From positions 1 through 51,171 of the IMG/VR virus record IMGVR_UViG_3300032157_000012: a stretch of DNA of 51,171 nucleotides, one strand, 5' to 3'. Position numbers and translations under genes: made by a program. The notes under the pieces were generated by a model. That model was not told the DNA's origin, did not search any database, and saw nothing but the letters and a program-made list of their open reading frames with translations. Position 1 is the stretch's first letter. Each line of letters starts with the position of its first letter. Below are positions 1,202 through 51,171 of the stretch, one piece after another. The stretch is from a virus.

Positions 1202-1465
1202 CTAGGCACCGTAGTCTCTCGTGACGGGCTTCTTCGGATCGAGCTCGTCGGCCTTTGCTCGCAGGATACCTGCCATGACTGTCGGGCTGGTCGTCGTGAC
1301 GTTGTCAGTCTCGATCCAGTTCTCACGGTCACGTGGTGCAGGCTTCTTGTCACCTTGTGCGACTGGACCGTTCAACTCGTCATGGGTGGGATACTCTGTC
1401 CACGTCTGGTACTCCTCTACCCTGACGCGATACTTGGTGACACCCTTGTTACTGATCGATGGCAT
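1202..1465 (-). CDS. hypothetical protein
   Basis: Track ORF 1202..1480. ATG 1465 overlaps the polA stop (TAATG). No motif recognised. Confidence 0.5.
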   Translation of the reverse strand: MPSISNKGVTKYRVRVEEYQTWTEYPTHDELNGPVAQGDKKPAPRDRENWIETDNVTTTSPTVMAGILRAKADELDPKKPVTRDYGA

Positions 1466-3870
1466 TACAGATCCCCCCAACTGGGTCCGTAGCTTACGTC
1501 TACTTCGAATGGTACGTATGTTGTGATGCGTTTAGCTGCTTCGACCATCTCATAGCGAAGCAGTTCCGACACGTATTCCAACTGCGACTCGGCCGTCTCG
1601 ACCACAAGAGCATCGTGAATAGTAAGACGCACAAAGCCCTTACCGCGGAGCTGTGGACGAATCCGCATGAAGGCGTCGATACAAATGTCTGAAGCCGTCG
1701 ACTGAGGCAAGTACGACAAAGCCTCGTTGAAGACTTCCTTCTCGTTCTGGGGCGTGATGAGAGCAAACCGTCGACGGCGTCCGAAGGGACTGATGAGATC
1801 GTGCCCCTCAAGGACGCGGTGCTTGATCGACTCCTGCCATGCCACTGTCCTGGGGATCGTATCGAGGAAGGCCTCGTAGTCCCTGATCGCCTCAGCAAGT
1901 GGAATCTTGTACTCCTTGGAGATGGAGTACGCTTCTCGGCCGAATGCAATGCCGTAGAAGAACGCCTTGGTACGAACACGCTGTTCCTTGTTGTTGATGT
2001 CGAACAAGTTCTTGTACAGGCCCAGACCTAGCTGGTTGAAGAGGTCCTCGTCACTGGCGAAGATGTCTCGGAGGTAGTCGTCCTGAGCCAGCCACGCAAT
2101 GACTCGGCCCTCAGCCTGTTTGTAATCCGCTTGGACGAGAATGTTCCCAGGGCGTGAAGCAACGAACTGCCGGCGAATAGCCTTGTCCCGAACAATATTC
2201 TGAAGGTTCGGGTTACGTGAAGCCAATCGTCCCGACGTGGTACCGTGCAGGAGATAGTTGGTAAAGACACGTCCACCGTAGAGCCTTTGACGAATACCTT
2301 TGACGAACGTTCCGTAACGCTTCGCCTCGAAGCGATGAGCCAGAAGCCTGTCGACGAACACTCCAGCACCGCTATTCGGATCAAGCTTCTCGGCAAGCGC
2401 ACTGAGAATCTCCTTACTCGTTCCTGCAACGTTGATGCGCTGCGTAGCTAGGAACTCCTTGACCTGCTTAGGCGACCTGGGGTTGATGAACGGGACTTCT
2501 CCGTCAGTGGCTACCTTGACGATGTTGGAGATGGCGTCTTCCATCTCGTTCAGCTTCTTCAAGTACGCCAGGCTCAGCTCCGTGTTGTACTTGACATCGA
2601 CTGTGATTCCATTCAGCTCCAGGAACATGAGCTGGTTGGAGGCGGCGACTAGGAAGTCATGCCAATCACGGATCGACTTGATCGGAAGCTCCGGGTAAGG
2701 CCAACGCGACTCGTCAGCTGCGATTGGATCCTCTGCCATTTCAGCCACGAAGAGCTCGTAGAGGTCCCATGTGCAGGCGACGTCGAAGGCGTTGTACTTG
2801 TAGAGGATCTCTCTTGGAATGTTAGCGTAGTTGCCTCCCCGAGGTACGAACTGTTTGATCTCGTCGTCGTAAGCTGGTGCGCCCAGTCGTTCCACGGCCA
2901 GTACCTTGAGTCCATGCCCACCTGTACGCTCGTCAAGAGCGTAATGCGCGAGCATAGTATCGAACCACAGTTCCAGGCGTGGAATGGTAGGCCAAAGACC
3001 CGCCAGGTCAAACTTCCCGTTGTGCGCAATGATCTTTGAACGCCGCAGTAGCGATCCGAGCCGTCCACGAACCTGTGCATTCGCCATTGCTCGTTCACCG
3101 ATGACAAGTGCCTGTCCTCTCGTCCAGGCCAGACCCACACAGAGCATCTGGTACATGTTCGGATGATCGTAGGCGGTATCCTTCTCGATGCCGACCTCGA
3201 TGTCAACGACCATCTCGTAGCGATCGTTGGTACGTTGCCACGCCAAGAGGTAGTCGAGAGCCTTGACGGCGAGAAGCGGCTCATCGTAGTACTGCCAGAA
3301 CGGTTCACACCACTCGTCAATCTGTAGACGATTGACCTTCTCGATGTCCGTTACCAGTGTAGGGAACGCGTCTGAATTGCGAAGTGTATAAGCTGGGTGC
3401 CAGGTCGGAACAACTCGCGTAACACTGCTTCCGTCAAGCGCTCGAGTTGGTCGCTTGGGGGGCCCGACTCGTAGCGTGGTAATGGTTCGCGGATCGTCAA
3501 CGAGAGCGTTAGTGGCAGTTCCACCCAGAGCAACGACAGTTCCCACGTTGCTGGTTGTGAGTTCGTCAATGAGACGCTCGCGACACGCAGCTTGTGCTGT
3601 CGCAGGTGGCGTAGCATTATCCGGCGGACGGCAAAGGCAAACATTCGTGAAGAGAACGTCCTTGCGATCAAAACCATTGTACTCCAATACGCGGTCGAAG
3701 AGCCTGCCTGACGGACCCACGAAGGGTTCCTTGTATACAGTTTCCTGAAAGCCTGGCGCTTCACCTACCACCGCGATGCGAGGGCTGATCGGGATGAGAC
3801 TAGGAGCCATGCCCTCATCCTTAAGAGGACATTCCTCACACTTGGCAAGTGGGTGTTTACGTGCAGACAT
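1465..3870 (-). CDS. polA: family-4 UDG-like domain fused to family A DNA polymerase with 3-5 exonuclease
   Basis: N-terminus: CEECPL, GEAPGFQE..PFVGPSGRLF, NVCLCRPP, WHPAYTLRN. Exonuclease: VVDIEVG. Polymerase motifs: DYKQAEGRV, RTKAFFYGIAFG, IHDALVVE. AGGAGGA lies before the ATG. Confidence 0.9.
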   Translation of the reverse strand: MSARKHPLAKCEECPLKDEGMAPSLIPISPRIAVVGEAPGFQETVYKEPFVGPSGRLFDRVLEYNGFDRKDVLFTNVCLCRPPDNATPPATAQAACRERLIDELTTSNVGTVVALGGTATNALVDDPRTITTLRVGPPKRPTRALDGSSVTRVVPTWHPAYTLRNSDAFPTLVTDIEKVNRLQIDEWCEPFWQYYDEPLLAVKALDYLLAWQRTNDRYEMVVDIEVGIEKDTAYDHPNMYQMLCVGLAWTRGQALVIGERAMANAQVRGRLGSLLRRSKIIAHNGKFDLAGLWPTIPRLELWFDTMLAHYALDERTGGHGLKVLAVERLGAPAYDDEIKQFVPRGGNYANIPREILYKYNAFDVACTWDLYELFVAEMAEDPIAADESRWPYPELPIKSIRDWHDFLVAASNQLMFLELNGITVDVKYNTELSLAYLKKLNEMEDAISNIVKVATDGEVPFINPRSPKQVKEFLATQRINVAGTSKEILSALAEKLDPNSGAGVFVDRLLAHRFEAKRYGTFVKGIRQRLYGGRVFTNYLLHGTTSGRLASRNPNLQNIVRDKAIRRQFVASRPGNILVQADYKQAEGRVIAWLAQDDYLRDIFASDEDLFNQLGLGLYKNLFDINNKEQRVRTKAFFYGIAFGREAYSISKEYKIPLAEAIRDYEAFLDTIPRTVAWQESIKHRVLEGHDLISPFGRRRRFALITPQNEKEVFNEALSYLPQSTASDICIDAFMRIRPQLRGKGFVRLTIHDALVVETAESQLEYVSELLRYEMVEAAKRITTYVPFEVDVSYGPSWGDL

Positions 3871-3915: not shown

Positions 3916-4686
3916 CTACGCCTCGAGGCCGTTGGCCCACATCGTGTACGTGTTGATATTCTTCTGCAGCAGCTCAGTATCCAGCGTACGCGTGGAGGTG
4001 AAGTAGGCGTTCGGGCGATCGATGTGTGCACGCTCAGGCTCAGGTACGCCAAGGTCCTCGCCGGCGATCGTGTAGTTGAACGGTGCACTGCTGTCGACAC
4101 CGCGAGCCCAGGGGAAGTCGCGTCCGAGAACGTGTACCTCACCGATCCAGCTCGAGTTGGTGCCGAGGAAGTGAACGTCGAACCGACCGATGCCGAACGT
4201 ACCCTCGATGAAGGTTGCGAGACGGCATCGTGCGGAAGGATCGGCCAGCGTGTTGATCAGGTGACGAGGAATGCCGAGCGTGCCGGCGACGCCGGACTTC
4301 TCCACCTTGCGGATGAAGTCGTAGCACTCCTCTATGGTCTCACCCTGAACCACAGCCATGAGCTGCAGGTGGCTGAAGTCGTCGTCGGACTCGTTCAGGT
4401 CGTAGATGAACTCGTCGATGGCCGTGAGCGTGCCCTCGCTGTTGCAGATCACGTCGGGCATGACGATCTCGTTGGCCTTAAGTGCCAGTGCAGCGTCGAG
4501 GAGATCCAGGTTCGAGACCTGCTCACCTTCCGCAGCGCCGTTGTCCAGGATGATGAAGTCCGCACCGAGCATCTTGTACGTGCTCAGGTAGCTCTCGCGC
4601 TTGAGCTCCTGTGCCAGGACGAGGTGGTAGTCCGACTGTCCTGCTGTGGTCTCGTAGCCCTTGGGTGGGATGAGTGCTGCCTTCAT
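3916..4686 (-). CDS. dpdA: DpdA-like (tRNA-guanine transglycosylase-fold) DNA 7-deazaguanine transglycosylase
   Basis: Track ORF trimmed to ATG 4686 (ATGA overlap with the upstream stop). FIILDNGAAEGE, VMPDV, GIPRHL, HFLGT, ARGVDSSAPF. Sits next to the preQ0 biosynthesis genes. Confidence 0.8.
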   Translation of the reverse strand: MKAALIPPKGYETTAGQSDYHLVLAQELKRESYLSTYKMLGADFIILDNGAAEGEQVSNLDLLDAALALKANEIVMPDVICNSEGTLTAIDEFIYDLNESDDDFSHLQLMAVVQGETIEECYDFIRKVEKSGVAGTLGIPRHLINTLADPSARCRLATFIEGTFGIGRFDVHFLGTNSSWIGEVHVLGRDFPWARGVDSSAPFNYTIAGEDLGVPEPERAHIDRPNAYFTSTRTLDTELLQKNINTYTMWANGLEA

Positions 4687-4991
4687 TGCTGCGGCATTCC
4701 CTTCAGGTTCATGATCGACTCCTTGCCGATCATCTCCTTGCCTGTCAGAGGCGCAGCCGTCTGCCCCTCTGTCTGAATCCGTGCCAGACCCTCCTGAGCC
4801 AGGCACAGCTTGATGTAGGTCATGCGTGCGTAGTTGCTAGCGTCGATGACCTCGTCCTTAAGGTGCTCCATCGTGTCGACGCCTAGCCACGTACCAGTTC
4901 CGTACTTCTCCTCACCGAGCTGGTGCTTCTCGAAGCACTTCCGATCGAACTCCTCGGACAGTTCGTTGATGCGCCGTTCGAAGTCGTTCAC
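4683..4991 (-). CDS. all-alpha NTP pyrophosphohydrolase-like protein (resembles the phage dATP/dGTP diphosphohydrolase family)
   Basis: Trimmed to GTG 4991 (GTGA overlap; GAGGGAG 8 nt upstream). EEKYGTGTW...HLKDEVIDASNYARM. Confidence 0.5.
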   Translation of the reverse strand: MNDFERRINELSEEFDRKCFEKHQLGEEKYGTGTWLGVDTMEHLKDEVIDASNYARMTYIKLCLAQEGLARIQTEGQTAAPLTGKEMIGKESIMNLKGMPQQ

Positions 4992-5398
4992 TTGAAGTGC
5001 TCCCTCTCGAATGCTTCCCGTGCGTTCTGGTCGGGGGTGATGCACTTGAGCCCGAAGCGCGACTCGTTGTACTGCCGCTTGGCGCTCCAGATAGCATTCC
5101 AGTCGACGTGCTGGAATGTTTCGTGACCCATCAGGTTGCAGAGGTAGATCAGTACGTCGATCACCTCCTCCGGCAACTCCTCCATCATAGCGGTGGAGGA
5201 GAGACTGCCACGAACGTTCTTCTTGACGAGGTTCGCAACCTCACCGACCTCACCAGCCAGACACAGCACCAGGTTCGGTAGCGACTGGGCCTTGCCAGGG
5301 AACCACCTACCGCTGTCGTCGACGCACTGGGCGATCATCTCCTGCAGAATCATGGCGTCGTCAGTGTTAGTCACCCTACGAGTATCCTCCCACCTCAT
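4988..5398 (-). CDS. MazG-like nucleotide pyrophosphohydrolase
   Basis: Trimmed to ATG 5398 (ATGA overlap with the folE stop). LAGEVGEVANLVKK...EELPEEVIDVLIYLCNL. Confidence 0.7.
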   Translation of the reverse strand: MRWEDTRRVTNTDDAMILQEMIAQCVDDSGRWFPGKAQSLPNLVLCLAGEVGEVANLVKKNVRGSLSSTAMMEELPEEVIDVLIYLCNLMGHETFQHVDWNAIWSAKRQYNESRFGLKCITPDQNAREAFEREHFK

Positions 5399-6000
5399 TT
5401 GATTCCCATCAGGAACTCGGCCTTGGCGGTGCGTTCGTGATCCGCGAACACTCCATGGGTTTCCACAGTACGAGTGATCGTGCCCGGTGTCTGGACACCA
5501 CGAATAGTCATGCACAGGTGCTCCGCCTCCATGACGACGATCACGCCGCGAGGGTTGAGACTCTCGTCCAGGAAGCCTGCCACCTCAGCGGTGAGCTCTT
5601 CCTGAACCTGCAGCTTACGAGCGAAGTGGTGAACCACTCGGGCGAACTTGGAGAGCCCTGCCACCTCCTTGTCAGGGACGTAGCCGATCCAGGCGTGACC
5701 GACGAACGGGACGACGTGGTGATTACAGACGCTGGCGAAGGGAATACGGTTCACCACCACCATCTGGTCGACCTCACTCTTGAAGGTCTTCCACTTCATG
5801 CACTCACCGAGGCAGTCCTTACAGCCAGTGAGCTCGTCCAACATCGAGACGAACCTCTTCGGTGTGTCTTTGCCGTGAACGTTCGTCACGTCGAGACCTG
5901 CATGGATCTGCAGGAGCGACTCAGCGTAGTCGAACGTGTCAGCGATGTCACTGGCCTGCACGGACGGAACACCACTGCCGATCCGAGAAGTATCGAACAC
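5395..6000 (-). CDS. folE: GTP cyclohydrolase I
   Basis: CNHHVVPFVGHAWIGYVP, LSKFARVVHHFARKLQVQEELT, HLCMTIRGV. GTG start at 6000. Confidence 0.9.
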   Translation of the reverse strand: MFDTSRIGSGVPSVQASDIADTFDYAESLLQIHAGLDVTNVHGKDTPKRFVSMLDELTGCKDCLGECMKWKTFKSEVDQMVVVNRIPFASVCNHHVVPFVGHAWIGYVPDKEVAGLSKFARVVHHFARKLQVQEELTAEVAGFLDESLNPRGVIVVMEAEHLCMTIRGVQTPGTITRTVETHGVFADHERTAKAEFLMGIK

Positions 6001-6003
6001 GTA

Positions 6004-6714
6004 TCAGACTCCAATCTTGTCAGGGTGCCAGACGTACTTGTGGACTTGCACGTTGAGACGCCAGGGAAGGTTGTCCTCCATCATCCACTGGCAGAGAGTC
6101 TCCGTAGGTGTAGTGTCCCACACGACACCAGCGTAGACCAGAGGTGCTTCTGGACGGTCCTTGAGGTGCTCGTGGTAGCGTCGCCTGGCCTCTTCGTAGT
6201 CGCCGCGATCCTTAATGGTGAACTTGATCGCATCATGACTCTCGAGGTAGTCCATGTTGTTGCCGAGCGTAGGCGTAGGATCGTACTCCTCACCGCTACC
6301 AGGAAGCTTCCAGTCCAAGATGAAGGTATCGATCATGTAAGGCAGATCGTCACCCCACGAGAGTGCACCGTTGGTGAAACACTCCACCTCGATAGTACGA
6401 TCGTCACCTTCACCAAGCTGCTTCAGCTTCGTGATGAACTGCTTCAGGTCCTCCTTGTACTGTAGGAAGACTTCACCTCCGGTGAGGCAGACGTTATCGA
6501 TGCCGAACGAGATAACCTCGGCAGCAAGTGCTGCAGGGTCCCAGAACTTCTGGAGCTCGCGATACTTCGACGGCTGGATGGCGTGCTGCGTATCACACGG
6601 CCACCCAGCGCACTTGAAGTTGCAGCCCGCAAAACGGACGAAGACAGTGGGCCGAGTGGTGTTCGGTCCCTCTCCCTGGTAGCTCGCATAGATCTCTACC
6701 ACCCTCAAGCTCAC
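6004..6714 (-). CDS. queE: 7-carboxy-7-deazaguanine synthase (radical SAM)
   Basis: Trimmed to GTG 6714 (GTGA overlap with the queD stop). EIYASYQGEGPNTTRPTVFVRFAGCNFKCAGWPCDT. Confidence 0.85.
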   Translation of the reverse strand: MSLRVVEIYASYQGEGPNTTRPTVFVRFAGCNFKCAGWPCDTQHAIQPSKYRELQKFWDPAALAAEVISFGIDNVCLTGGEVFLQYKEDLKQFITKLKQLGEGDDRTIEVECFTNGALSWGDDLPYMIDTFILDWKLPGSGEEYDPTPTLGNNMDYLESHDAIKFTIKDRGDYEEARRRYHEHLKDRPEAPLVYAGVVWDTTPTETLCQWMMEDNLPWRLNVQVHKYVWHPDKIGV

Positions 6715-7193
6715 AGCTGCACCTTCGTAGTAGTACCGATCCAGTCGACACGAACCTCCGCACCGTTCGTACGCGTCTCGTCGATTGAGCAGACGACGTC
6801 TGTTCTGAACTGGCGAGCAGCCCACTCACCGATCCACCTGGCAAGGTTCTCGACCGTGGGCTCGCCCGGAACGGTTGTGAGACCGGGTAGCTTAGTCTTC
6901 CACTCAGTACCGGAAGGATCAGCGAAGGTGAGCTCGCCAGCGAAGTCGTCGTCAGCGTTCAGTACGAGATGGTGGTCGTAGTTGCTGTCAACGTAGCTAC
7001 GGAAGGTACGCTTCGCCGAGCCGAACTCGACAGTGTCACCGTAGCGAGTACGAGCCATGCCGTTGTGACCCTCTTCGAGGCCTGGGAAGGAAATGGTGAC
7101 CTGCATCCCGTGGCCGTGGATCTGCTTGCACTTCGTCGTATCCCTAGAGAGTCGGTGTGCGACCTCCATGTTGTGGGTGATCTTAAGCAGCAT
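6711..7193 (-). CDS. queD: 6-carboxy-5,6,7,8-tetrahydropterin synthase
   Basis: Trimmed to ATG 7193 (GAGGAGAG upstream). KITHNMEVAHRL...CKQIHGHGMQVTISF...NYDHHLVLNADD. Confidence 0.85.
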   Translation of the reverse strand: MLLKITHNMEVAHRLSRDTTKCKQIHGHGMQVTISFPGLEEGHNGMARTRYGDTVEFGSAKRTFRSYVDSNYDHHLVLNADDDFAGELTFADPSGTEWKTKLPGLTTVPGEPTVENLARWIGEWAARQFRTDVVCSIDETRTNGAEVRVDWIGTTTKVQL

Positions 7194-7362
7194 TGTCACT
7201 CTCCTCGTCAAGGATGTAGGCCTCGAGGACCTTGGCATCTTGGATGACAGACTCGGCGCTGGCATCCATTGCATTGCCTTCGCCCACGATCGTCTGCACG
7301 AGAAGCAAACGCAGATCAGGGCGACTGAAGACAGTCGTAGCGTCAGAGAGAGTATTGCCCAC
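7183..7362 (-). CDS. candidate 59-aa acidic protein (below the ORF-track size cutoff)
   Basis: Hand translation from GTG 7362 (GAGGG 4 nt upstream): VGNTLSDATTVFSRPDLRLLLVQTIVGEGNAMDASAESVIQDAKVLEAYILDEESDNAA. The stop overlaps the queD start. Confidence 0.35.
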   Translation of the reverse strand: MGNTLSDATTVFSRPDLRLLLVQTIVGEGNAMDASAESVIQDAKVLEAYILDEESDNAA

Positions 7363-7374
7363 GGAACCCTCGCT

Positions 7375-7446
7375 CGTGTGGAGTTTGGAAAGGATGTCAG
7401 TACGATGTTAAACAAGGGTGTGGAGCTGCCGCCACAACTCCACACG
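7375..7446 (-). promoter_or_regulatory. full tripartite element: CGTGTGGAGTT-N20-TTGTTTAACAT-N18-AAACTCCACACG (read on the - strand)
   Basis: Arms at 7436-7446 and 7375-7386; core at 7405-7415. Same architecture as 15052-15125 and 22288-22360. Confidence 0.7.
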
Positions 7447-7461
7447 CCTTGCAGCTTCGAA

Positions 7462-7839
7462 CTAGAGCAGGCGACGCATGCTGTTGAGCTGCCTCTCGTT
7501 CCAGTCGGAGTTCATGTTCCCGTCGGTCTCAGCGTACAGCACCGACGTTTCACTGGTGTTGGAGCACACGCTGTTGTGGTAGACCCGGTAGTCGTACGGC
7601 GTCTCGTTCTTCACCGAGTAGGTACGGTCCGGGTACACCTTGAGGCAGGCCGTGTTGTTCCGGTGCCACTTGTTCTCGATCGGCGCGGCGAACGCCAGGT
7701 AGAGCTCGTAGGTGCAGATGTAGTCGTTCGGGCACGGGTCCACCGCCTGTGCCGCCGATGGGATGAACGCCTGCGCTCCCAGAGCCACGATCGCTGCAGC
7801 GATCAGCGTTCCGAGCCTACGCTTGAACCTGTCTCCCAT
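7462..7839 (-). CDS. small secreted Cys-containing protein (signal peptide); weak resemblance to actinobacterial I36 / beta-gamma-crystallin-like secreted proteins
   Basis: Trimmed to ATG 7839 (GAAAGGAAAAG upstream). MGDRFKRRLGTLIAAAIVALGAQAFIPSAAQA, then VDPCPNDYICTY...; 4 Cys. Confidence 0.6.
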   Translation of the reverse strand: MGDRFKRRLGTLIAAAIVALGAQAFIPSAAQAVDPCPNDYICTYELYLAFAAPIENKWHRNNTACLKVYPDRTYSVKNETPYDYRVYHNSVCSNTSETSVLYAETDGNMNSDWNERQLNSMRRLL

Positions 7840-8029
7840 GGTGCTTTTCCTTTCTCTCACCGAGGCACCAAGCGATGCCATCGAAGACTGTTGCGAGCAT
7901 GTTGTAGGGGTCACATGCACGTGATCCTTCACTGTCCCCATTACCGTTCGACGGCGGAGGATTGCTGGGCCAGGACGGACGTCCCCAGTCCCTCTCAGGG
8001 TTGGATTGTCCACGTCGTTGGACAAACAT
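7817..8029 (-). CDS. possible small P/G/S-rich protein
   Basis: Good SD (AAGGGAGA, 4 nt before ATG 8029), but low-complexity sequence and a 23-nt overlap with the next gene. Confidence 0.2.
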   Translation of the reverse strand: MFVQRRGQSNPERDWGRPSWPSNPPPSNGNGDSEGSRACDPYNMLATVFDGIAWCLGERKEKHHGRQVQA

Positions 8030-8073
8030 CAGGTCTCCCTTCGTCGTCGACGCAGTGGATGAAGTCGTCGTCG

Positions 8074-8925
8074 TTACAGGCTGCGAGGCTGAGAAGAAGC
8101 AGGCTCGTCAGTAGCAGCCTTAGCATCCGCGACCACTCCCTTCCAGTACTCAGTGTCTTCGTACGAGGTATTGTCGTACTGCAGATTCTCGCCGTAGTTC
8201 TCGTTCACTCGCTCCTGAGCCTCGGCGATGGCCTCGAGGCGCTCGACGCAGGTGCCGCACTTGCCGCAGTGGATGTCGCCTCCCTTGTAGCAGCTCCAGG
8301 TGTCCTCGAACGGGACGTAGAGGTAGATCCCCTTCAGAGCGATGTCGGCCTTGGACTGGCCGTGGAAGGGGGCGTAGATGACTCCAGTCACCTCGGTGCC
8401 CTCCTCCTGCTTGGGGATGCAGCCGAAGCCTTCGTTGCCGATTACGATGGAGGCGTTGACAGCGTTGAGGAAGCGAGGGCGACAGTCAGGGTAGACGAAG
8501 TGATCGCCTGAATGAACTCCGGTACCGATGAGGCGGTAACCGTTGTTCACCATGACACCTGCAGCGATGGACAGCATGATCATGTTCCGGTTCGGGACCA
8601 CGGTCAGCTGCATGTTGTCCTCGGCGTAGTGCCCCTCGGGCACCTCGATGAAGTTGCCCGCCAGGTCGGCGCCGACGTACTGCGGAGAGGTGAGGGCCGA
8701 GTTGCTGATCAGGTGGGTGATGCCCGTCAGGTCGACGATGTCGTGGCGCAGGTTGAGTCGCTCGGCGGTGCGCGCTGCGTAGTCCAGTTCCTTGACGTGA
8801 CGCTGACCGTAGTTGAAGCTCAGCAGGTGGGGATTGAGGCCCTGCTGCATCATCTCGTAGACCAGAACGGTAGAGTCCAGACCGCCACTGAAGATGGCGA
8901 CACTGTCGTGGATTCTCTTACTCAC
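8074..8925 (-). CDS. queC: 7-cyano-7-deazaguanine (preQ0) synthase with a ~55-aa C-terminal extension
   Basis: VAIFSGGLDSTVL, NYGQRH, VPNRN, CYKGGDIHCGKCGTCVERL. GTG 8925 with AGGAGGAG upstream; GTGA overlap with the primase stop. Confidence 0.9.
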   Translation of the reverse strand: MSKRIHDSVAIFSGGLDSTVLVYEMMQQGLNPHLLSFNYGQRHVKELDYAARTAERLNLRHDIVDLTGITHLISNSALTSPQYVGADLAGNFIEVPEGHYAEDNMQLTVVPNRNMIMLSIAAGVMVNNGYRLIGTGVHSGDHFVYPDCRPRFLNAVNASIVIGNEGFGCIPKQEEGTEVTGVIYAPFHGQSKADIALKGIYLYVPFEDTWSCYKGGDIHCGKCGTCVERLEAIAEAQERVNENYGENLQYDNTSYEDTEYWKGVVADAKAATDEPASSQPRSL

Positions 8926-11117
8926 TTGGCTCCTCCTGTAAGGGGGTAGTACGTCTGTCGAGACGTAACTGGATCACGCTTCATGGTGATCTGTCCACGC
9001 TGAATGAGCGTGTCGAACGTTTGTGTAGCCTGTGTCGCTGTGAGGTGATGCGACTGCATCAGCTGCGATCGACTGATGCCTGGCCGCCTGACGATCGACA
9101 GGAGCACCTTCTCGAGGTCCCGCTCTGCCGCCGTTCGGCCGATGCCATTCACTACTTCGATAGAGTAGGCTCGCCACTGCTTACAGTACCTGATGGCATG
9201 CAAGATATCAGCGACCTCTACCGTTACGCCTGTCTGTCCTACCTGTCGCGCCGCAGCTAGAAGCACTGCTGCCTTCAAGGTGTTCTTTGCAAGACGGTCG
9301 AAGAGAGGCGTCATCAGCTCAGGCTTCTCGGACTGAAGGCCAGACTGAATCAGACTGAGTTCGAGATCGTTGTACCTCAGCCATGCCTCAGGCGTTAGCT
9401 CAGCGTCTGTGCGCGCTTCTATCTGTGCGTGCTCTCCCCTTTCCTTGATGTGCACAGCACGCGTCTGGCCGTAGTGCTGCTGCATGTTGGTCATCTCGTC
9501 CAGAAGCTGTTGCTTGTTGCCTAGGACCTTCGCCGTTGGAGGACCCAGCGGTTGTAGCTTGGAAGTATCGGACTCCGCAGTAACGAATACGAACCGAGGA
9601 ATGAATCCCGAGGAGACGTGCTCGTGCGTGAGAAGACCTTGCACACGATTACGGATCCCACCTGCGAAGATGAGAAGAATCGGGTGACGTACAACGACTT
9701 CCTCTTTGCGTAGGACTCGCTTCTGCATCTTGCCATCGTATAGCTTCGTGAGTACCTCAGCCATGCCGGCATAGTAGTCCTTCTTGGTGATCATCTCTAG
9801 GAGACCACTGAACTCGTCCCTCAAGAAGATCGACGGGCGCTTCGGCCTCGTGGATAGTTGTTGCATAAGGCCTTCGACGCTGCCGTCCGTCGCCAGGATC
9901 ACGTCCTGGTCTACCTCCATCAGACAGTCCATCGCAATGTCCATCGCAGTGGTCTTCCGAGTCAGGGTAGTGTCGCCCAGGATCATGAACCACAGATTCG
10001 GAACAACTGGCCCGTATGACGTTGGGAGGGTCACACGCCCTGACAGGAGGGCACTTAGGATAGTGAAAGCACCAGCCTGGTGATACTGCGTAGCTGCATC
10101 TCCAAGAGAACTGGCCCATTCGATGTACCTCTCTACGAAGCCTTCCTGCTTAGCTGCGAGCTTCTCCTCTTCCTCTGTCATGAGATCGGCAATGTCGGCA
10201 CCAGGGAAGAAGAGAGCGTTTGTTCGTTCCTGGTAGGTAACGAACGCTCGACACACCTCCGTCCACAGGTGCTCTTGTGACTTACCATCACGACGGTACT
10301 TGTTGCAGGCACTTGCCCACGAGACGACGAACACTTCCTCTCGAGTCATACCCATCTCGAACAGGCACATCTCGAGCTTCCAAAGCTTCTCCGACCAGTC
10401 ACCTGTCTCAGGTGACGCGTGGTACAGTTCGTATGTGGTTGGGAGAAGCGCATGCTTGTAGTTCTGTAGGATGTCTTCCGCATCCTCCTGCGGTAGCTGC
10501 TCCGCTGAGGGCATAGGCGTCTTCAGGAACGCACTGTGCTTCACCTCGGGGAAGACACCGAAGTCGGTTACCGTATACAGGTTCTGTGTGACCTTAGTCA
10601 CCAGGACCTCAGGGTCGTCTGAGTACTTATGGTTGAGCGTCCCGGGTACTCGCAGCAGCTGAGTCAGGTCCCAACCACTACGGTCACAACCATCCTCCGC
10701 ATGGAAGTAAGCGAGACGCTTACTGGCATCTTCAGCGACGTGAGGCGCAGACACATGACTCAAACGCCACAGGGCCTGATGCCTACCTGGTGAAGACTCG
10801 ATCAGGATCGTAGGCTCTAGGGCCAACTTCTCCGGAGGACAGTTGTCCAGGTCTGCCCAAATGGTCGGGCAGCCTACTACGTTATCCTTTCGCCGTCGGC
10901 GCGACTCGAACACCTGAGGACAGTAGTACACATCACTGATGTGCTTACCGTCCGAAGCTGCCTGGGCGGCTCTCTCCAGCTCTTCAGGATACTGGAAGAA
11001 GCGTTCGGTCATCTCCGACTTGCCAGACGGTGTACGCGAAAGGAATGCAATGCAGATGTAGCCCCGGGCCTCAGGACCGAAAGCTAGTTTGAAGAATGTC
11101 GCTATCTTAGCTTCCAT
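8922..11117 (-). CDS. bifunctional primase-polymerase (AEP) / DUF3987-type helicase-like protein
   Basis: 731 aa. WADLDN, ESSPGRHQALWRL (prim-pol). Central LWFMILGDTTLTRKTTAMD...IFLRDEFSGLL. Confidence 0.75.
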   Translation of the reverse strand: MEAKIATFFKLAFGPEARGYICIAFLSRTPSGKSEMTERFFQYPEELERAAQAASDGKHISDVYYCPQVFESRRRRKDNVVGCPTIWADLDNCPPEKLALEPTILIESSPGRHQALWRLSHVSAPHVAEDASKRLAYFHAEDGCDRSGWDLTQLLRVPGTLNHKYSDDPEVLVTKVTQNLYTVTDFGVFPEVKHSAFLKTPMPSAEQLPQEDAEDILQNYKHALLPTTYELYHASPETGDWSEKLWKLEMCLFEMGMTREEVFVVSWASACNKYRRDGKSQEHLWTEVCRAFVTYQERTNALFFPGADIADLMTEEEEKLAAKQEGFVERYIEWASSLGDAATQYHQAGAFTILSALLSGRVTLPTSYGPVVPNLWFMILGDTTLTRKTTAMDIAMDCLMEVDQDVILATDGSVEGLMQQLSTRPKRPSIFLRDEFSGLLEMITKKDYYAGMAEVLTKLYDGKMQKRVLRKEEVVVRHPILLIFAGGIRNRVQGLLTHEHVSSGFIPRFVFVTAESDTSKLQPLGPPTAKVLGNKQQLLDEMTNMQQHYGQTRAVHIKERGEHAQIEARTDAELTPEAWLRYNDLELSLIQSGLQSEKPELMTPLFDRLAKNTLKAAVLLAAARQVGQTGVTVEVADILHAIRYCKQWRAYSIEVVNGIGRTAAERDLEKVLLSIVRRPGISRSQLMQSHHLTATQATQTFDTLIQRGQITMKRDPVTSRQTYYPLTGGAK

Positions 11118-16226: not shown

Positions 16227-16607
16227 TTAGCGGATCTCGGGCTGCGGGATGATCGTGGCCGGCTTGAAGACGACCTTGTAGTGGCTCTTGCTGACGCCGA
16301 TCTCGTCGATCTGCTCCGAGAACATGGTGACGTTGTCGCTGCGGCCCAGCAGGTGCTTCTTGTAGCCCTTGCCGATCTTGCAGGTGATTGTGTACCTGGC
16401 GGGGTCGGTCATGTCGACCGAGCAGTAGCCCGTGGCCTCGAGGATGTACTCGCCGGTGATGCCGTTGTAGAAGATGGTCCTGCGGAGGACGTTGAAGTTG
16501 TCAGCCTCCTTGGCGAGGTTCTCGTTCACGACGTCGGCGTCGGAGGTACACGCGGTTGCACCGAATAGCAGTACCCCGGCGAGGAGAACTGCAGTGATCT
16601 TCTTCAT
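16227..16607 (-). CDS. lipoprotein
   Basis: Track ORF trimmed to ATG 16607. MKKITAVLLAGVLLFGATAC, a signal peptide with a lipobox-like Cys. Confidence 0.65.
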   Translation of the reverse strand: MKKITAVLLAGVLLFGATACTSDADVVNENLAKEADNFNVLRRTIFYNGITGEYILEATGYCSVDMTDPARYTITCKIGKGYKKHLLGRSDNVTMFSEQIDEIGVSKSHYKVVFKPATIIPQPEIR

Positions 16608-16626
16608 GACGTTACCTTTCTTGTAG

Positions 16627-16914
16627 TTAGTTCCAGGCACCGAATGCTGCTGCGGTGAAGTAGCTCGCGATAGAAACGATCGCCACCACGGGGATGATGG
16701 CCGTGAGGTACACCGCCTTGCGGATCTCCGGAGAGGCCATGGACGAAGCACCGTTCGCGCTGCCGGAGTTACGAGACTTGTCGGCGCGGGTGGTCTTCTT
16801 GACTTTGGGCTTGTTGGCCTTCTTGCCGCCCCTGTGGTTGGAGCTGCCAGAGTTCTTCCCGGCGTAGCCACCGTGAGAACGCCCCTCGTTCTCCATGCGT
16901 TCGTTGTTGGGCAT
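16627..16914 (-). CDS. membrane-anchored basic protein (C-terminal TM)
   Basis: G/S/K/N-rich N-terminus, then AVYLTAIIPVVAIVSIASYFTAAAFGAW. Confidence 0.5.
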   Translation of the reverse strand: MPNNERMENEGRSHGGYAGKNSGSSNHRGGKKANKPKVKKTTRADKSRNSGSANGASSMASPEIRKAVYLTAIIPVVAIVSIASYFTAAAFGAWN

Positions 16915-16915
16915 G

Positions 16916-18439
16916 TCAGCTCCTTACTACTGCAGGGTCGAGAACGGCCTTGAGCCATTCCCACTTCATTTCGATTCGCTCGTTTCGCCGCCGGTCAACG
17001 GTGTCTCGAGCAACGAGCCGGAGAATGAGGACGGCGTTCTTTTGTCCCAGACGATGCAGACGATCCTCAGCCTGTTTGTTTTTCGTGGGGCTCCAATCCC
17101 AGTCCAGGAAAATGCAGATCGAAGCAGCAGTAAGGGTGATACCCACACCACCCGCCTTAATGGTACTGCAAAAGACCCTACGCTTCCCTGCCTGGAACTC
17201 CTCGATAAATAGATCACGATCCGTCTGTTTAGTGTCACCAGTAAGAACCCCATGGGGGATCTTAGCAGCCCGAAGGCGGGCCGCCAGTAGGTTGATGGCC
17301 TGCTTGCTCTGTCCGAAAACCACGACTTGCCCATTGGTTGCCTCAATGAGATCCATTGTCGCGTCGAGCTTACAACTCGGTTCGTCAAGCTCCAGGTACT
17401 GAGTCGGAACCTGGTACGATGTAGCGTACGGTAGCCCCTTGAGTGCACGGAACTCTAGCTGTCTCTCCGTGTACTTGACCGTATTGATCTTGGTCACAAG
17501 CTTACCGTACGCGACAGCGAACTGCTGGAGCCTGACGAGCTGGCTAACAACGTTCACGGCCGGGACAGGTTGGTCCTCGTTCTTACCTACCCAAGCCAGC
17601 ATGTCCTTCGCCATCGCGTCGTATGCTGACCGCTGCTTCGGGTGGAGGTCGACGGGAATGTCGTCGTAGGTTTTCTCCGGAATGTCTTCCCAGACTTCTT
17701 CCTTCGTACGACGAACGTATGCCATCCCCATCGCTTGGTGGATCGTGTCTACTTCAGCGAAGCCGCACACTTCCGTAAAGCTTCTACGGTGGTAGCCTCC
17801 GCAGCCTTCAGCCAGACACGTACCGTCGTTGTGCTTCTTCTGCATCACGTGACGGTTGAAGAAGGCCCAGTAGCTGGTCCACCTCTTCGGCCACAGCCAG
17901 TTCAAGACTGACCATGCGTCGTCTGGTCTGTTGTCTGCCCACGTACCGGACAAGCCTGTCTTGTAGACTGTCCGTAGCTTCTTGAAGTACTGTGTCTGCT
18001 GCGCCTTTCGGTTCTTGATGTTCTGGATCTCGTCGCCGATGATGTGGAACCATCCTACGGTCTGGAGCTCCTCGTGAATGAACCGAAGGCCTTGCCAGTG
18101 GCACACGAAGATCTGGTACTCGTCACTCTTCAGTGCCTCGACGAACTCTTGCCTGTTCTTCCTATCGATCACCTTCACTTTCAGTTGAGGTGCCCAGTTG
18201 TTGTAGTGCTTCTCCCAAGCACCCATGACCGAGGTCATTGTCACGACGAGAGTCTTACCTGTACTCTGTTGTGCCTTACGGTAGCCGGCATCCAGTTCGA
18301 TAGCCTCGATCGTCTTACCGAGACCCATATCGTCACCGATGAGCACTGAGGTGTCAGGAGTACCTCTACGGTACATCTCCCACTGGTGCTCCTGGATCTG
18401 CTTCAAGGCATCGTCTTGGAACTTGTGGAGAGTGAACAT
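16916..18439 (-). CDS. SNF2-family helicase
   Basis: LIGDDMGLGKTIEAI, IIGDEIQNIKN, GLSGTWADN, KAGGVGITLTAAS, QAEDRLHRLGQ. Confidence 0.9.
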   Translation of the reverse strand: MFTLHKFQDDALKQIQEHQWEMYRRGTPDTSVLIGDDMGLGKTIEAIELDAGYRKAQQSTGKTLVVTMTSVMGAWEKHYNNWAPQLKVKVIDRKNRQEFVEALKSDEYQIFVCHWQGLRFIHEELQTVGWFHIIGDEIQNIKNRKAQQTQYFKKLRTVYKTGLSGTWADNRPDDAWSVLNWLWPKRWTSYWAFFNRHVMQKKHNDGTCLAEGCGGYHRRSFTEVCGFAEVDTIHQAMGMAYVRRTKEEVWEDIPEKTYDDIPVDLHPKQRSAYDAMAKDMLAWVGKNEDQPVPAVNVVSQLVRLQQFAVAYGKLVTKINTVKYTERQLEFRALKGLPYATSYQVPTQYLELDEPSCKLDATMDLIEATNGQVVVFGQSKQAINLLAARLRAAKIPHGVLTGDTKQTDRDLFIEEFQAGKRRVFCSTIKAGGVGITLTAASICIFLDWDWSPTKNKQAEDRLHRLGQKNAVLILRLVARDTVDRRRNERIEMKWEWLKAVLDPAVVRS

Positions 18440-23806: not shown

Positions 23807-23877
23807 TGCCCCTGGCAGGAATCGAACCTGCATCGTCGGCTTCAGCACCTTGGCTCTACCATTTGAGCTACAGGGGA
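23807..23877 (-). tRNA. tRNA-like element (probable degenerate or pseudo-tRNA): canonical D-arm, T-arm and acceptor, no foldable anticodon arm
   Basis: - strand: TCCCCTG TA GCTC AAATGGTA GAGC ...21 nt... GCAGG TTCGATT CCTGC CAGGGGC A. 1:72 is a T:C mismatch. No 5-bp stem with a 7-nt loop fits the central 21 nt. No CCA is encoded. Confidence 0.45.
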
Positions 23878-46777: not shown

Positions 46778-47638
46778 ATGAAGATTCTGGCCGTACCCCT
46801 TACGTTGCTCATGCTAGCCATTCCCAGTCCGTGTGCGGCTGCAGATGCAACGGCGTGCCCGAAGATCATCGCACACAAGACCAATCCGCTCGAGGCTCCT
46901 GAAGACAGCATCCAAGGTATCCTCTCTGTGCCAGCAACTCAGGCGCAGGCAGTCGAAGTCGACCTGAGGTTCAACAAGTCGAACTGGCCTGTCGCTATGC
47001 ACGATAAGACAGTCGACAGGACCACAACGGGTACAGGTAACGTCAACACCTACTACCTACCCGACATCGTCAAGCTGTCCGCTGCTGACTACGCGCCTTG
47101 GAACACCGACCCCCGCTTCGCTGGCTTCTGGCCTGACGGTACGCCTAAGGTGAAGGTGCCCTACACTTGGGATATCGTCAACGCTGCGAACACATCTGAC
47201 GTAGACCTTCTACTGGATGTCAAGGAGACTCCGCCTAACGCTGAGGCTGCTTACAAGATTTGGGACTACCTCAACAGGTTCAACTACTTCAACCGGACCA
47301 TCTACATGGGGAGTCCTGAGTCCATCACAGCGATGCGTGCTCTCTACCCTTCTCTCCAGTACATGCTCATCGAGTACCCTGCAGCTACCTACATGGGACG
47401 GTCAGCATCGTACTTGAAGAGCCTGGGCGTGATAGGCTACGCTGTCCCTTTCGGTTCGGTGGACGAGAACTTCGTCAACTACTACCGCGCCAATAACATC
47501 CAGGTGTATACCTGGACGTCGGACAATGTCGGTGTAGATGTTTACGCTAACTGGCAGAAGATGGCCGATGCTGGGGTTACTGCGTTAGTTACCAATAACC
47601 CGAAGGCTGCTCGCGAGAGCATCACGCAGTGTCAGTAA
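46778..47638 (+). CDS. glycerophosphodiester phosphodiesterase (GDPD) with an N-terminal signal peptide
   Basis: MKILAVPLTLLMLAIPSPCAA; IIAHKTNPLEAPEDS; VEVDLRF; VAMHDKTVDRTTTGTG. Confidence 0.75.
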   Translation: MKILAVPLTLLMLAIPSPCAAADATACPKIIAHKTNPLEAPEDSIQGILSVPATQAQAVEVDLRFNKSNWPVAMHDKTVDRTTTGTGNVNTYYLPDIVKLSAADYAPWNTDPRFAGFWPDGTPKVKVPYTWDIVNAANTSDVDLLLDVKETPPNAEAAYKIWDYLNRFNYFNRTIYMGSPESITAMRALYPSLQYMLIEYPAATYMGRSASYLKSLGVIGYAVPFGSVDENFVNYYRANNIQVYTWTSDNVGVDVYANWQKMADAGVTALVTNNPKAARESITQCQ

Positions 47639-50903: not shown

Positions 50904-51171
50904 CTACTTAAGCTTCTGTAGCCATTGCTGGCCGTTCAGGTAGAGGTAGAACGTATCGTAGTGTAGCCAGTGCCGTAGTGCATCACGACTGTGACGTGAA
51001 TCACACTCGTTGTAGAGGCCGACCTTCTTGAGCTTGACGTCAGTCCAGAAGGCCTTCTCGCCCTTGACTACTGCCGCCTTCTGTACGTGGTATGCGATGT
51101 TGAACATCTGACAGTACAGCTGGATTATGCCCAGGTACTGTCCTGCGTCGTAGTTGATGTATGCTCGCTGT
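50904..51171 (-). CDS. RuvC-like resolvase, 3-prime part (same gene as 1..309; 51045-51171 duplicates 1-127)
   Basis: Track ORF 50904..51107 is in frame with upstream codons through the window end. Confidence 0.65.
   Translation of the reverse strand, partial: QRAYINYDAGQYLGIIQLYCQMFNIAYHVQKAAVVKGEKAFWTDVKLKKVGLYNECDSRHSRDALRHWLHYDTFYLYLNGQQWLQKLK
51045..51171. repeat. second copy of the 127-bp terminal duplication
   Basis: Identical to 1-127. Confidence 0.95.

Follow-up and report, generated by a model that had tools for sequence, protein, structure and literature searches.

A DpdA3-type 7-deazaguanine DNA-modification module predicted in the replication operon of an uncultivated siphovirus

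As reported, FolE, QueD, QueE and QueC together with DpdA give rise to dPreQ0 in the phages Rosebush and CAjan (PMC6884629). The DpdA3 subfamily, whose founding member is CGPG_00065 of Cellulophaga phage phiST, has been linked to complete G replacement; phiST, with its DpdA3 module CGPG_00065-00071, has DNA with 100% 2'-deoxy-7-deazaguanine, and attempts to reconstitute DpdA3 in E. coli failed (PMC10516641). In the solved DpdA, the Zn subdomain/Ins8 is a DpdA-specific insertion that makes up 30% of the protein and is stressed in the DpdA-DNA model (PMC10164549).

In this study, we analyzed a window of 51,171 nt, which is the complete ~51-kb genome of an uncultivated siphovirus with a probably Gram-positive or actinobacterial host. 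An earlier note, made from the sequence alone, had proposed a 7-deazaguanine DNA-modification island between the polymerase and the primase. Our analysis supports this island, in which a DpdA-type transglycosylase is encoded with FolE, QueD, QueE and QueC; the five minus-strand ORFs and the motifs quoted for them were all located where the note had placed them. A DpdA3-type 7-deazaguanine DNA-modification module is likely the explanation of the whole locus, and systems of the DpdA3 type are already known as DNA modifications directed against restriction.

The module lies on the minus strand within the replication operon, flanked by the genes for a UDG-fused PolA and a primase. Across ~80 viral contigs, the common order is primase-QueC-(variable slot)-QueD-QueE-FolE-MazG-ORF120-DpdA3-PolA. 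In the synteny comparison, QueC occurs in 44 of 47 related loci; of the 68 loci with sufficient upstream sequence, 56 have MazG and 52 have ORF120. The primase lies upstream in 41 of the 47 loci whose upstream sequence extends for 7 kb or more. This extends the DpdA3 module to a large, previously unstudied clade of phages, in which MazG and ORF120 are additional conserved partners. Most module genes are joined by 4-nt start/stop overlaps, and the start and stop positions confirm the proposed chains dpdA-ORF120-mazG-folE and queE-queD, with ATGA at ORF120/dpdA and folE/mazG and GTGA at mazG/ORF120 and queD/queE. The primase and queC are also coupled, the primase stop overlapping the queC start in a GTGA, and queE and folE are separated by a gap of 3 nt. 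The true bounds of DpdA, ORF120, MazG, QueE and QueD are shorter than the maximal ORFs; independent gene calls agree on the first three, and the starts of QueE (a GTG) and QueD were set by start/stop overlaps and motifs.

A minimal DpdA3-type transglycosylase

The DpdA-like protein (3916..4686, 256 aa) gave no match to Pfam and NCBIfam HMMs, including the TGT models, but its fold, its best BFVD match and its family profile all bear out the earlier assignment. Its AF2 model (pLDDT 96.9) is a minimal TGT barrel, for which a Foldseek search of the PDB returned TGT in all 50 matches listed, with probability 1.00. The best BFVD match is phiST DpdA3 (M4SLA5; E 4.4e-16, TM 0.83), which nearly superposes on the model, and the identity to CGPG_00065 is 27% (tblastn/blastp). 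Based on this fold and homology, the enzyme is a member of the already described DpdA3 subfamily (PMC10516641). It is also homologous in sequence to the PolA-adjacent proteins of phages Youna2 and BSP7. Furthermore, the family profile matches the solved DpdA 7ui4 (E 0.0027) over a region spanning the His/Gln and nucleophile-Asp motifs; the nucleophile Asp256 aligns with D198, and the base-recognition His181 aligns with Q114. The catalytic Asp residues are kept, and D48, N49, G50, D78, R153, H172, G175, D198 and N243 are invariant. The motifs ILDNGA and PDVxGD align with IIDSGA and LDVIGD of actinophage DpdA1. The protein has no conserved Cys cluster, and the Zn subdomain is absent. In addition, the protein is very acidic (pI 4.5), and its net charge of about -20 makes it an awkward fit for a stand-alone DNA enzyme. 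The DpdA3 type comprises 5514 viral clusters at 50% identity, and a search of 185,579 species genomes gave a single match, on a MAG contig.

FolE, QueD, QueE and QueC form the bacterial queuosine-precursor pathway, and this favors a reading in which the locus is an auxiliary metabolic module whose extra queuosine/preQ0 serves tRNA modification and translation instead of DNA. Such a role is very improbable here. The transglycosylase is of a type that is viral apart from the one MAG-contig match, and the Zn subdomain through which tRNA is bound is missing from it. The module sits amid the replication genes and is translated together with them, and modified DNA has been found in every analyzed phage having DpdA and these genes (PMC6884629, PMC10516641).

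Biosynthetic enzymes and the predicted base

The five module enzymes are identified and intact. FolE, GTP cyclohydrolase I (5395..6000, 201 aa), matches PF01227 (5.9e-53) and NF006825 (176.5 bits; cutoff, 174). QueE, the radical-SAM 7-carboxy-7-deazaguanine synthase (6004..6714), was assigned by its motif and the PHROG QueE profile (2e-25); it also matches TIGR04349 (1.7e-34) and TIGR03963 (5.1e-32), each below the equivalog cutoff. QueD, 6-carboxytetrahydropterin synthase (6711..7193, 160 aa), matches PF01242 (4e-18) and PHROG QueD (8.7e-26). QueC, 7-cyano-7-deazaguanine (preQ0) synthase (8074..8925, 283 aa), matches PF06508 (7e-51) and TIGR00364 (155.7 bits; cutoff, 150.3), and among cultured phages it is closest to the QueCs of actinophages, with 41-49% identity. 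Across 56-73 homologues, the catalytic motifs are kept, namely, CxHH of FolE, CxxxHGH of QueD, the Cys triad CxxxCxxxxC and DT of QueE, and SGGxDS (here SGGLDS) with four invariant Cys of QueC. The QueD signature is that of QueD itself, as opposed to LxxxHRHxF of DpdL (PMC10516641). A C-terminal QueC extension of ~55 aa had been described in the earlier note; this was overstated, as clade-wide conservation extends to about residue 262, and the unique, unconserved tail (about 266-283) amounts to about 20 residues with no domain.

A Pfam scan of all ORFs of at least 110 aa detected no QueF, ArcS or amidotransferase (GATase), in line with what had been noted before, and the scanned ORFs yielded no PTPS paralogue, DUF3109 protein or formyltransferase either. 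DpdL, DpdM and DpdN are likewise not encoded. As QueF, amidotransferase, DpdL, DpdM and DpdN are all missing, the predicted base is preQ0 (dPreQ0 in DNA), which we slightly favor as the one inserted. FolE, QueD, QueE and QueC would convert GTP to preQ0 (7-cyano-7-deazaguanine), and the minimal DpdA3 would then swap guanine for preQ0, giving progeny DNA with dPreQ0 in place of dG. Going by the three DpdA3 phages analyzed, this swap may affect most G positions or all of them, and we put the chance of near-complete replacement at about even. The modified DNA would be shielded from restriction and other nucleic-acid-targeting defenses. G-containing palindromes are not avoided in the genome, which is weak evidence consistent with a protected genome.

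Alternatively, the final DNA base might be dADG or a further derivative, which we consider possible but doubtful. A QueC*-like enzyme might stop at the amide, the nitrile might be hydrated after insertion to give dADG, or an enzyme not recognized as such, like the product of ORF120 or of some other unannotated ORF, might produce a further derivative. In particular, dADG occurs in the Campylobacter DpdA3 phages, whose QueC homologue has been proposed as an ADG synthase, and the same authors thought it unlikely that DpdA3 inserts preQ0 (PMC10516641). Many ORFs of this genome are also without a family match, and the queC-queD slot of related loci offers extra candidates, such as a DJ-1/PfpI protein. 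Nevertheless, the score of QueC against TIGR00364, the equivalog model for preQ0 synthase, exceeds the trusted cutoff, and the nearest cultured relatives of this QueC are from actinophages, including cluster-B mycobacteriophages, whose relative Rosebush has dPreQ0 (PMC6884629). Moreover, the 102 aa of ORF120 form a helical hairpin that shows no sign of a catalytic fold, and the sole non-conserved gene inside the island encodes a secreted protein.

Partner genes and the level of base exchange

Extra genes inside the island had been pointed out previously; MazG and ORF120 are indeed conserved module members, but the queC-queD slot is occupied by a variable moron outside the conserved module. This gene (7462..7839, 125 aa from MGDRFKRRL...) encodes a predicted secreted, Cys-containing protein with a signal-peptide-like N-terminus, which has no family match in Pfam, PHROG or NCBIfam and no homologue in 84 related loci. 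In relatives, the slot holds other secreted proteins and also, for example, the DJ-1/PfpI protein. ORF120 (4683..4991, gene call P0121) is a small acidic protein that AF2 models as two long helices (pLDDT 78), with G26, Y30, G31, E47, D50, N53 and Y54 invariant. It has no fold, Pfam or PDB match and no tblastn match in GenBank phages, and its earlier label "PPase" (pyrophosphatase) was dropped for want of any significant match. The MazG-like NTP pyrophosphohydrolase (4988..5398, 136 aa) matches PF03819 weakly (1.1e-3); its family profile, compared with the PDB, matches 2q73 (1.1e-12), dCTP pyrophosphatase 1 (3.3e-12) and, more weakly, the MazZ structure 7ODY (3.7e-3). It is of the all-alpha type, with E50, E53, K60, E78, D81 and Y85 invariant.

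PolA (1465..3870, 801 aa), directly downstream of dpdA3, combines an N-terminal family-4-like UDG domain (PF03167, 4.5e-25), a 3'-5' exonuclease (PF01612, 4.1e-9) and the polymerase (PF00476, 9.6e-59). PolA follows DpdA3 in most related loci, always with a UDG-like N-terminus. Its nearest cultured relatives, at about 30% identity, are those of Youna2 and the BSP7/BSTP phages, which share the module. The primase/helicase (RepB-primase plus DUF3987; 8922..11117; PF13148, 2.8e-18; PF16793, 1.3e-9) forms the upstream border.

Exchange on DNA, not on the nucleotide, has an even or marginally better chance. The MazG-like enzyme and ORF120 would then be co-translated, clade-conserved accessory factors, and the adjacent UDG-fused PolA would copy the modified genome. 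Exchange at the DNA level leaves the co-translated, conserved MazG with no obvious role.

A rather less probable alternative is base exchange by DpdA3 at the level of the deoxynucleotide. MazG would convert dGTP to dGMP, both depleting dGTP and supplying substrate; DpdA3 would replace the guanine of dGMP with preQ0; phosphorylation of the product to the triphosphate would fall to kinases (those of the host in this case, and Tmk-like or AAA_18 phage proteins in BSP7, Youna2 and phiST); and the linked PolA would incorporate it, leading to complete replacement, as a guanine counterpart to the PurZ/MazZ/DpoZ logic of Z-genomes. Family-A polymerases use 7-deaza-dGTP well, which suits this route, but we know of no TGT-superfamily enzyme that acts on mononucleotides. 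MazG and ORF120 are coupled to and conserved with DpdA3, and the MazG profile resembles dCTP pyrophosphatase 1 and, less closely, MazZ; however, MazG genes are common among phages without modified DNA. Thymidylate-kinase-like genes lie directly upstream of DpdA3 in BSP7 and Youna2 (phrog_761, 9.5e-16 and 1.5e-9), as does an AAA_18 kinase-like gene in phiST, whereas no nucleotide kinase was found among the ORFs scanned in this 51-kb genome. DpdA3 nearly always adjoins a dedicated PolA, although adjacency to replication genes suits a co-replicative DNA enzyme equally well. The bare acidic barrel, without the Zn/Ins8 subdomain (PMC10164549), also argues for exchange on the nucleotide, as do the complete replacement, the lack of DNA modification by DpdA3 in E. 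coli and the ADG nucleoside in the cytoplasm of infected Campylobacter, yet the literature places insertion after replication (PMC10516641). A modified-dGTP route has been suggested for Campylobacter phages (PMC6884629).

Comparison with known systems

Bacterial DpdA/DpdB/DpdC (7UI4, PMC10164549) shares the TIM-barrel TGT fold and the aligned Asp256/D198 and His181/Q114 positions; it is cellular, not viral, and differs in having the Zn site, Ins8 and the DpdB ATPase partner. DpdA1 phages have the same four biosynthetic enzymes and predicted base, and the QueCs of cluster-B mycobacteriophages (Rosebush relatives) are 41-43% identical to that of this genome. However, their DpdA1 is larger and basic (Rinkes: 290 aa, pI 8.8), often lies beside a ParB/DpdB-like gene, resembles the minimal acidic DpdA3 at the motif level only, and replaces G only partially.

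In the Z-genome cluster PurZ/MazZ/DatZ/DpoZ, which makes 2-aminoadenine, the neighbors of the base-changing enzyme include a dedicated PolA and a pyrophosphohydrolase of the MazG type, and the canonical base is completely replaced. The likeness applies only if exchange precedes replication. The chemistry differs, PurZ being an adenylosuccinate-synthase homologue, and save for the MazG fold, this is analogy and not homology; a dGTPase role here is putative.

QueF/formyltransferase-type DpdA3 phages also combine a DpdA3-type enzyme with a phage-encoded 7-deazaguanine pathway and replace G completely, whereas this genome has no QueF or formyltransferase among the ORFs scanned; their DpdA3s were not detectable by tblastn from the DpdA3 of this genome. 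The cultured Bacillus phages BSP7/BSTP and Weizmannia phage Youna2 share the order primase-QueC-x-QueD-QueE-FolE-x-DpdA3-like-UDG-PolA and the gene content for a preQ0 end product. In contrast, a thymidylate-kinase-like gene replaces MazG and ORF120 upstream of their DpdA3, which is only about 27% identical. The module is unrecognized in the annotation of these phages, and we found no data on their DNA composition in the literature. Finally, phiST shares the DpdA3 fold and, in one operon by the polymerase region, FolE, QueE, QueD and a MazG-like gene. It encodes DpdL, a QueD paralogue, together with an AAA_18 kinase-like protein but no QueC, whereas this genome has QueC and ORF120 without DpdL or a kinase. 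Since QueC is present here without DpdL, and DpdL in phiST without QueC, the base predicted for this genome is preQ0, as opposed to the 7-deazaguanine of phiST.

Gene order and the preQ0 enzymes

The best-supported reading of this region is a DpdA3-type 7-deazaguanine DNA-modification module, and we consider it highly probable. The earlier note had proposed such an island, and the proposal is upheld by intact preQ0 enzymes, by the recognition of DpdA3 through fold and homology, and by a conserved gene block. In the ORF listing, the region forms a single long series of genes on the − strand. A UDG-fused family-A polymerase (PolA, 801 aa; 1465-3870; PF00476 9.6e-59, PF03167 4.5e-25) is followed by a DpdA-like ORF (256 aa; 3916-4686) and the small ORF120 (102 aa; 4683-4991), both without a Pfam or NCBIfam match, and by a MazG-like ORF (136 aa; 4988-5398) with a weak match to PF03819. 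Next come FolE (201 aa; 5395-6000; PF01227 5.9e-53, NCBIfam score above the cutoff), QueE (6004-6714; PHROG QueE 2e-25, TIGR04349 1.7e-34) and QueD (6711-7193; PF01242 4e-18). ORF187, which has neither relatives nor a family match (7462-7839), separates QueD from QueC (8074-8925; PF06508 7e-51, TIGR00364 155.7 against a cutoff of 150.3), and a primase/helicase completes the series (8922-11117; PF13148, PF16793). Independent gene calls of public assemblies give the same lengths for FolE, MazG, ORF120, DpdA and PolA. The start-stop overlaps described from the sequence alone read as stated, with ATGA/GTGA junctions at ORF120/dpdA, mazG/ORF120, folE/mazG, queD/queE and primase/queC; 3 nt separate queE from folE. 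When the island was compared by megablast with 50,697 phage records, no match was returned.

The ORFs and motifs expected of the island are present, and their catalytic signatures are kept across 56-73 homologues. For FolE, 71 of 73 sequences keep the Zn-binding and catalytic C-x-H-H motif, and the scores exceed the cutoffs of NF006825 and NF006826. For QueD, the signature CxxxHGH appears as KCKQIHGHG, which is of the QueD rather than the DpdL type; 65 of the 68 sequences share its C, H and G, and 63 share the second H. The radical-SAM Cys triad and DT of QueE are invariant in 62/64 sequences, and the TIGR QueE models match with scores below their equivalog cutoffs. Finally, the PP-loop SGGxDS and four-Cys Zn site of QueC are invariant in all 56 sequences. 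The C-terminal extension of about 55 aa ascribed to QueC was overstated. Alignments with actinophage QueCs reach residue 262-268, and residues 251-262 are kept within the clade, while 266-283 are not. The extra length consists mainly of three short insertions, and Pfam detected no additional domain and no GATase domain in QueC. An extra C-terminal domain was therefore rejected, since only about 18 residues are unique and these are not conserved.

A minimal DpdA3

Curated models miss the DpdA-like protein: PF01702 and the NCBIfam TGT models gave no match at E<=0.01, and a single-sequence search against the PDB returned only noise. In contrast, its assignment to the TGT/DpdA proteins is supported by the fold, the family profile and homology to phage phiST. 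Based on an AF2 model from a 50-sequence alignment (pLDDT 96.9, pTM 0.93), the protein is a (beta/alpha)8 TGT-type barrel. The 50 PDB matches listed by Foldseek are TGTs throughout (probability 1.00, TMq 0.47-0.60), and the family profile matches the solved bacterial DpdA 7UI4 (E 0.0027). Among the predicted viral structures of BFVD, the best match is M4SLA5 of phiST (E 4.4e-16, TM 0.83/0.82), followed by actinophage DpdA1 proteins with a TM of about 0.5. This phiST protein, CGPG_00065, was named DpdA3 by Cui, Hutinet et al. (PMC10516641), and it is also recovered by blastp (1.4e-13, in a small database). Five of the six GenBank phage records found by tblastn belong to phiST-group Cellulophaga phages. 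The single PHROG match of the DpdA-like protein is to an unannotated PHROG, and both it and the phiST protein fall in the territory of phrog_20335. Moreover, the protein is encoded beside 7-deazaguanine synthesis genes in a complete phage genome. Collectively, the DpdA-like protein is a distant member of the DpdA3 subfamily; tblastn aligns 94% of the query with the type protein at 27% identity (E 7e-6).

Asp48, Asp78 and Asp198 are invariant in 50-52 homologues and, as judged from the alignments, would form the TGT active-site Asp trio of general acid/base, base recognition and nucleophile. In an actinophage DpdA1, the counterparts of D48 and D78 lie in the DSGA and LDV motifs; ILDNGA and PDVxGD, near the N-terminus of the window protein, line up with IIDSGA and LDVIGD in DpdA1 from mycobacteriophage Rinkes. 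When a 20-residue tag offset is allowed for, the nucleophile Asp256 of the solved DpdA corresponds to D198, and its His181 corresponds to the nearly invariant Q114 (PMC10164549 for both residues of the solved enzyme).

Classical TGT and DpdA enzymes contain a structural Zn2+ site and a C-terminal subdomain (Ins8 in DpdA), whereas the DpdA3 of the window lacks both. In the DpdA3 alignment, Cys conservation does not exceed 54% in any column and the sole invariant His is H172; the lack of a conserved Cys/His cluster thus indicates that neither the Zn subdomain nor Ins8 is present. The protein is a bare eight-stranded barrel whose C-terminus lies 58 residues past the nucleophile. It is also acidic: its net charge is near −20 and its pI is 4.5 (family median pI 5.8), in contrast to the pI of 8.8 of Rinkes DpdA1. 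The DpdA3 family comprises 5514 clusters at 50% identity (E<=1e-3), and a search of 185,579 species-representative genomes (GTDB) gave a single match, on a MAG contig. The family is therefore large and essentially virus-only.

A conserved block and a variable slot in related loci

Eighty IMG/VR loci were compared using iterated local HMMs, and the gene order is fixed: primase, QueC, a variable position, QueD, QueE, FolE, MazG, ORF120, DpdA3 and PolA. Of the 47 loci whose upstream sequence spans 7 kb or more, 44 contain QueC, 44 QueE, 45 QueD and 45 FolE. Of the 68 loci that extend 1.2 kb or more upstream, 56 contain MazG and 52 contain ORF120, which never occurs without MazG. Across the related loci, the PolAs linked to DpdA3 genes all carry a UDG-like N-terminus, and the N-terminal ~170 aa of the window PolA are a predicted family-4-like UDG domain with a GEAPG motif and Cys pairs. 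The MazG family retains the metal-binding residues ExxE...ExxD (E50, E53, E78 and D81) as invariant positions. Its profile matches 2q73 (1.1e-12), dCTP pyrophosphatase 1 (DCTPP1, 3.3e-12) and MazZ (3.7e-3) in the PDB; the single-sequence match to PF03819 is below the gathering score, and tblastn of MazG against GenBank phages gave no match.

ORF120 is a new orphan family. Its conserved core reads S-EFD--C--RH--G--(K/E)YG---F---D----EE--D-ANYARY-YIKL, and the protein is predicted to adopt a two-helix hairpin. None of 47 members has a Pfam match; NCBIfam and PDB searches gave no match, tblastn found no relative in GenBank phages, and the comparison with AF_0060 reached only E 0.26. The earlier label of ORF120 as a PPase is unsupported, because its only tie to pyrophosphatases is a 14-column EExxDxxNY match to the neighboring MazG family (hhalign probability 2%), with no significant similarity to any NTP-PPase family; a MazG paralogue was rejected on the same basis. 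Additionally, a DpdL or QueD paralogue was rejected for lack of similarity, membership in a DUF3310-like or 8-locus helical family by negative hhalign results, and a known fold by zero Foldseek matches. In six loci without ORF120 (L030, L033, L062, L073, L081 and L082), a DUF3310 protein (PF11753, 9e-12) adjoins DpdA3, for example at L033 10744-11157.

The position between queC and queD varies among the loci. In the window it is occupied by ORF187, which is unique to this genome, has a signal-peptide-like N-terminus and encodes a Cys-containing protein predicted to be secreted; Pfam and NCBIfam returned nothing for it. The same slot in the closest relatives holds unrelated small secreted Cys-rich proteins (e.g., L003 3840-4301 and L005 5157-5666). 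A pathway enzyme was rejected for ORF187 given its uniqueness, its signal peptide and its variable slot; it is a moron rather than a pathway gene, and the slot resembles a hot-spot for morons within the modification operon.

Other loci differ in this part of the operon. A DJ-1/PfpI-family protein (PF01965, 2.5e-14; for example L039 6640-7293) lies between queC and queD in L036, L039, L043 and L057, accompanied in all four by a 127-140-aa protein; the DJ-1/PfpI protein is a candidate for further 7-deazaguanine base modification. The short contig L062 encodes at 5738-6094 a DpdL-like QueD paralogue with the motif LKNLHRHLF, which groups with DpdL of phiST; QueC was not detected on the contig. 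The paralogue probably indicates that the clade includes a 7-deazaguanine (dDG) variant.

Predicted base, host and route of replacement

Pfam scans, which covered some 50 ORFs of 110 aa or longer throughout the genome, revealed no QueF, glutamine amidotransferase, ArcS, DpdL/PTPS paralogue, DUF3109 (DpdM) or formyltransferase (DpdN/PF00551), so that the absence of queF, arcS and an amidotransferase noted earlier holds at this scope. The same scans recovered the replication and recombination genes AAA_24, PD-(D/E)XK and SNF2 helicase together with siphovirus structural genes. [quoted passage not shown] The three chemically analyzed DpdA3 phages show complete replacement, by dADG in CP220, dDG in phiST and fdPreQ1 in immuto (PMC10516641); by analogy, a high or complete level of G replacement is plausible in the window phage. 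Palindromic 4- and 6-mers that contain G are not avoided in the window, a weak piece of evidence that fits a protected genome. As separate observations, CTAG alone among the palindromes falls clearly short of expectation (72 observed against 122 expected, z −4.5), and TATA occurs in excess. In the clade, DpdA3 plus QueC without QueF or DpdL is the dominant gene set and predicts fully dPreQ0-substituted DNA. Such phage DNA was not reported in the literature examined, although the DpdA3 and QueC set may already be catalogued in PMC10516641; no DNA composition for phages BSP7 or Youna2 and no later mechanistic work on DpdA3 were found in the literature.

An exact 127-bp direct repeat (1-127 and 51045-51171) indicates that the 51,044-bp genome is complete and was assembled as a circle. 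No GenBank phage contains near-identical DNA. The large terminase shares 37% identity with its counterpart in Arthrobacter phage Wollypog, and QueC is closest to actinophage QueCs. A protein with a Phage_VG64 domain (PF25682, 2.5e-46; 16227-16964, − strand), a family named after a mycobacteriophage protein, supports the actinophage affiliation. Among the tail genes, a glycerophosphodiester phosphodiesterase (GDPD) domain protein (PF03009, 4.8e-21; 46778-47638, + strand) suggests degradation of a teichoic-acid-type receptor and a Gram-positive host. We infer that the host is Gram-positive and probably actinobacterial. Rfam calls a tRNA at 23807-23877 on the − strand (RF00005, 40 bits, E 4.5e-5), although ARAGORN found no tRNA in the window.

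In the published view, the modified base is inserted into DNA after replication; DpdA3 is the one subfamily tied to complete G replacement, and its activity has never been reconstituted or seen in a heterologous assay (PMC10516641). Less probably, DpdA3 might be a nucleotide-level exchanger instead of a DNA transglycosylase, converting dGMP and preQ0 to dPreQ0-MP and guanine. Along this tentative route, a dGTP-specific MazG would feed DpdA3 with the assistance of ORF120, and kinases and the dedicated UDG-fused PolA would act thereafter. MazG, ORF120, DpdA3 and PolA could then, although we hold this doubtful, constitute a pre-replicative "G-replacement" pathway resembling PurZ/MazZ/DpoZ, the pathway for 2-aminoadenine. 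Such a route would fit the co-translation of MazG with the DpdA3 block, the acidic DpdA3 without a Zn/Ins8 subdomain, and the dedicated polymerase that constantly adjoins DpdA3. Furthermore, P-loop nucleotide-kinase-like genes lie directly upstream of DpdA3 in three cultured phages, thymidylate-kinase-like (phrog_761) in BSP7 (BSP7_056, L088 7339-7902; 9.5e-16) and Youna2 (L002 7453-8004; 1.5e-9) and AAA_18 kinase-like in phiST (CGPG_00066, L001 7520-7999; 9.4e-7), which hints at a nucleotide-level step. However, no TGT-family enzyme is known to act on mononucleotides, and the Pfam scans found no nucleotide kinase among the ~50 window ORFs of at least 110 aa. The co-translated MazG, the reduced and acidic DpdA3, the adjoining polymerase and the kinase-like genes fit a nucleotide-level route at least as well as post-replicative insertion, and such a route, if true, would explain why 100% replacement is confined to DpdA3 phages and why the Zn/DNA-binding subdomain is missing. 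For the favored DpdA3-type modification module, the question of post- or pre-replicative modification is directly testable, because the cultured B. subtilis phages BSP7 and BSTP carry the same module.

Genomes built with 7-deazaguanines are a major means by which phages counter defence. Here, one abundant clade of ~50-kb phages keeps DpdA3 in a fixed, co-translated block with MazG, ORF120 and a UDG-fused polymerase. DpdA3 modules have already been described (PMC10516641), and the module is of this known kind; what is new in comparison is how large and uniform the uncultivated clade is, together with its MazG-ORF120-DpdA3-PolA block, the ORF120 family, a DpdA3 that is minimal and lacks Zn, and the dominance of DpdA3 with QueC.
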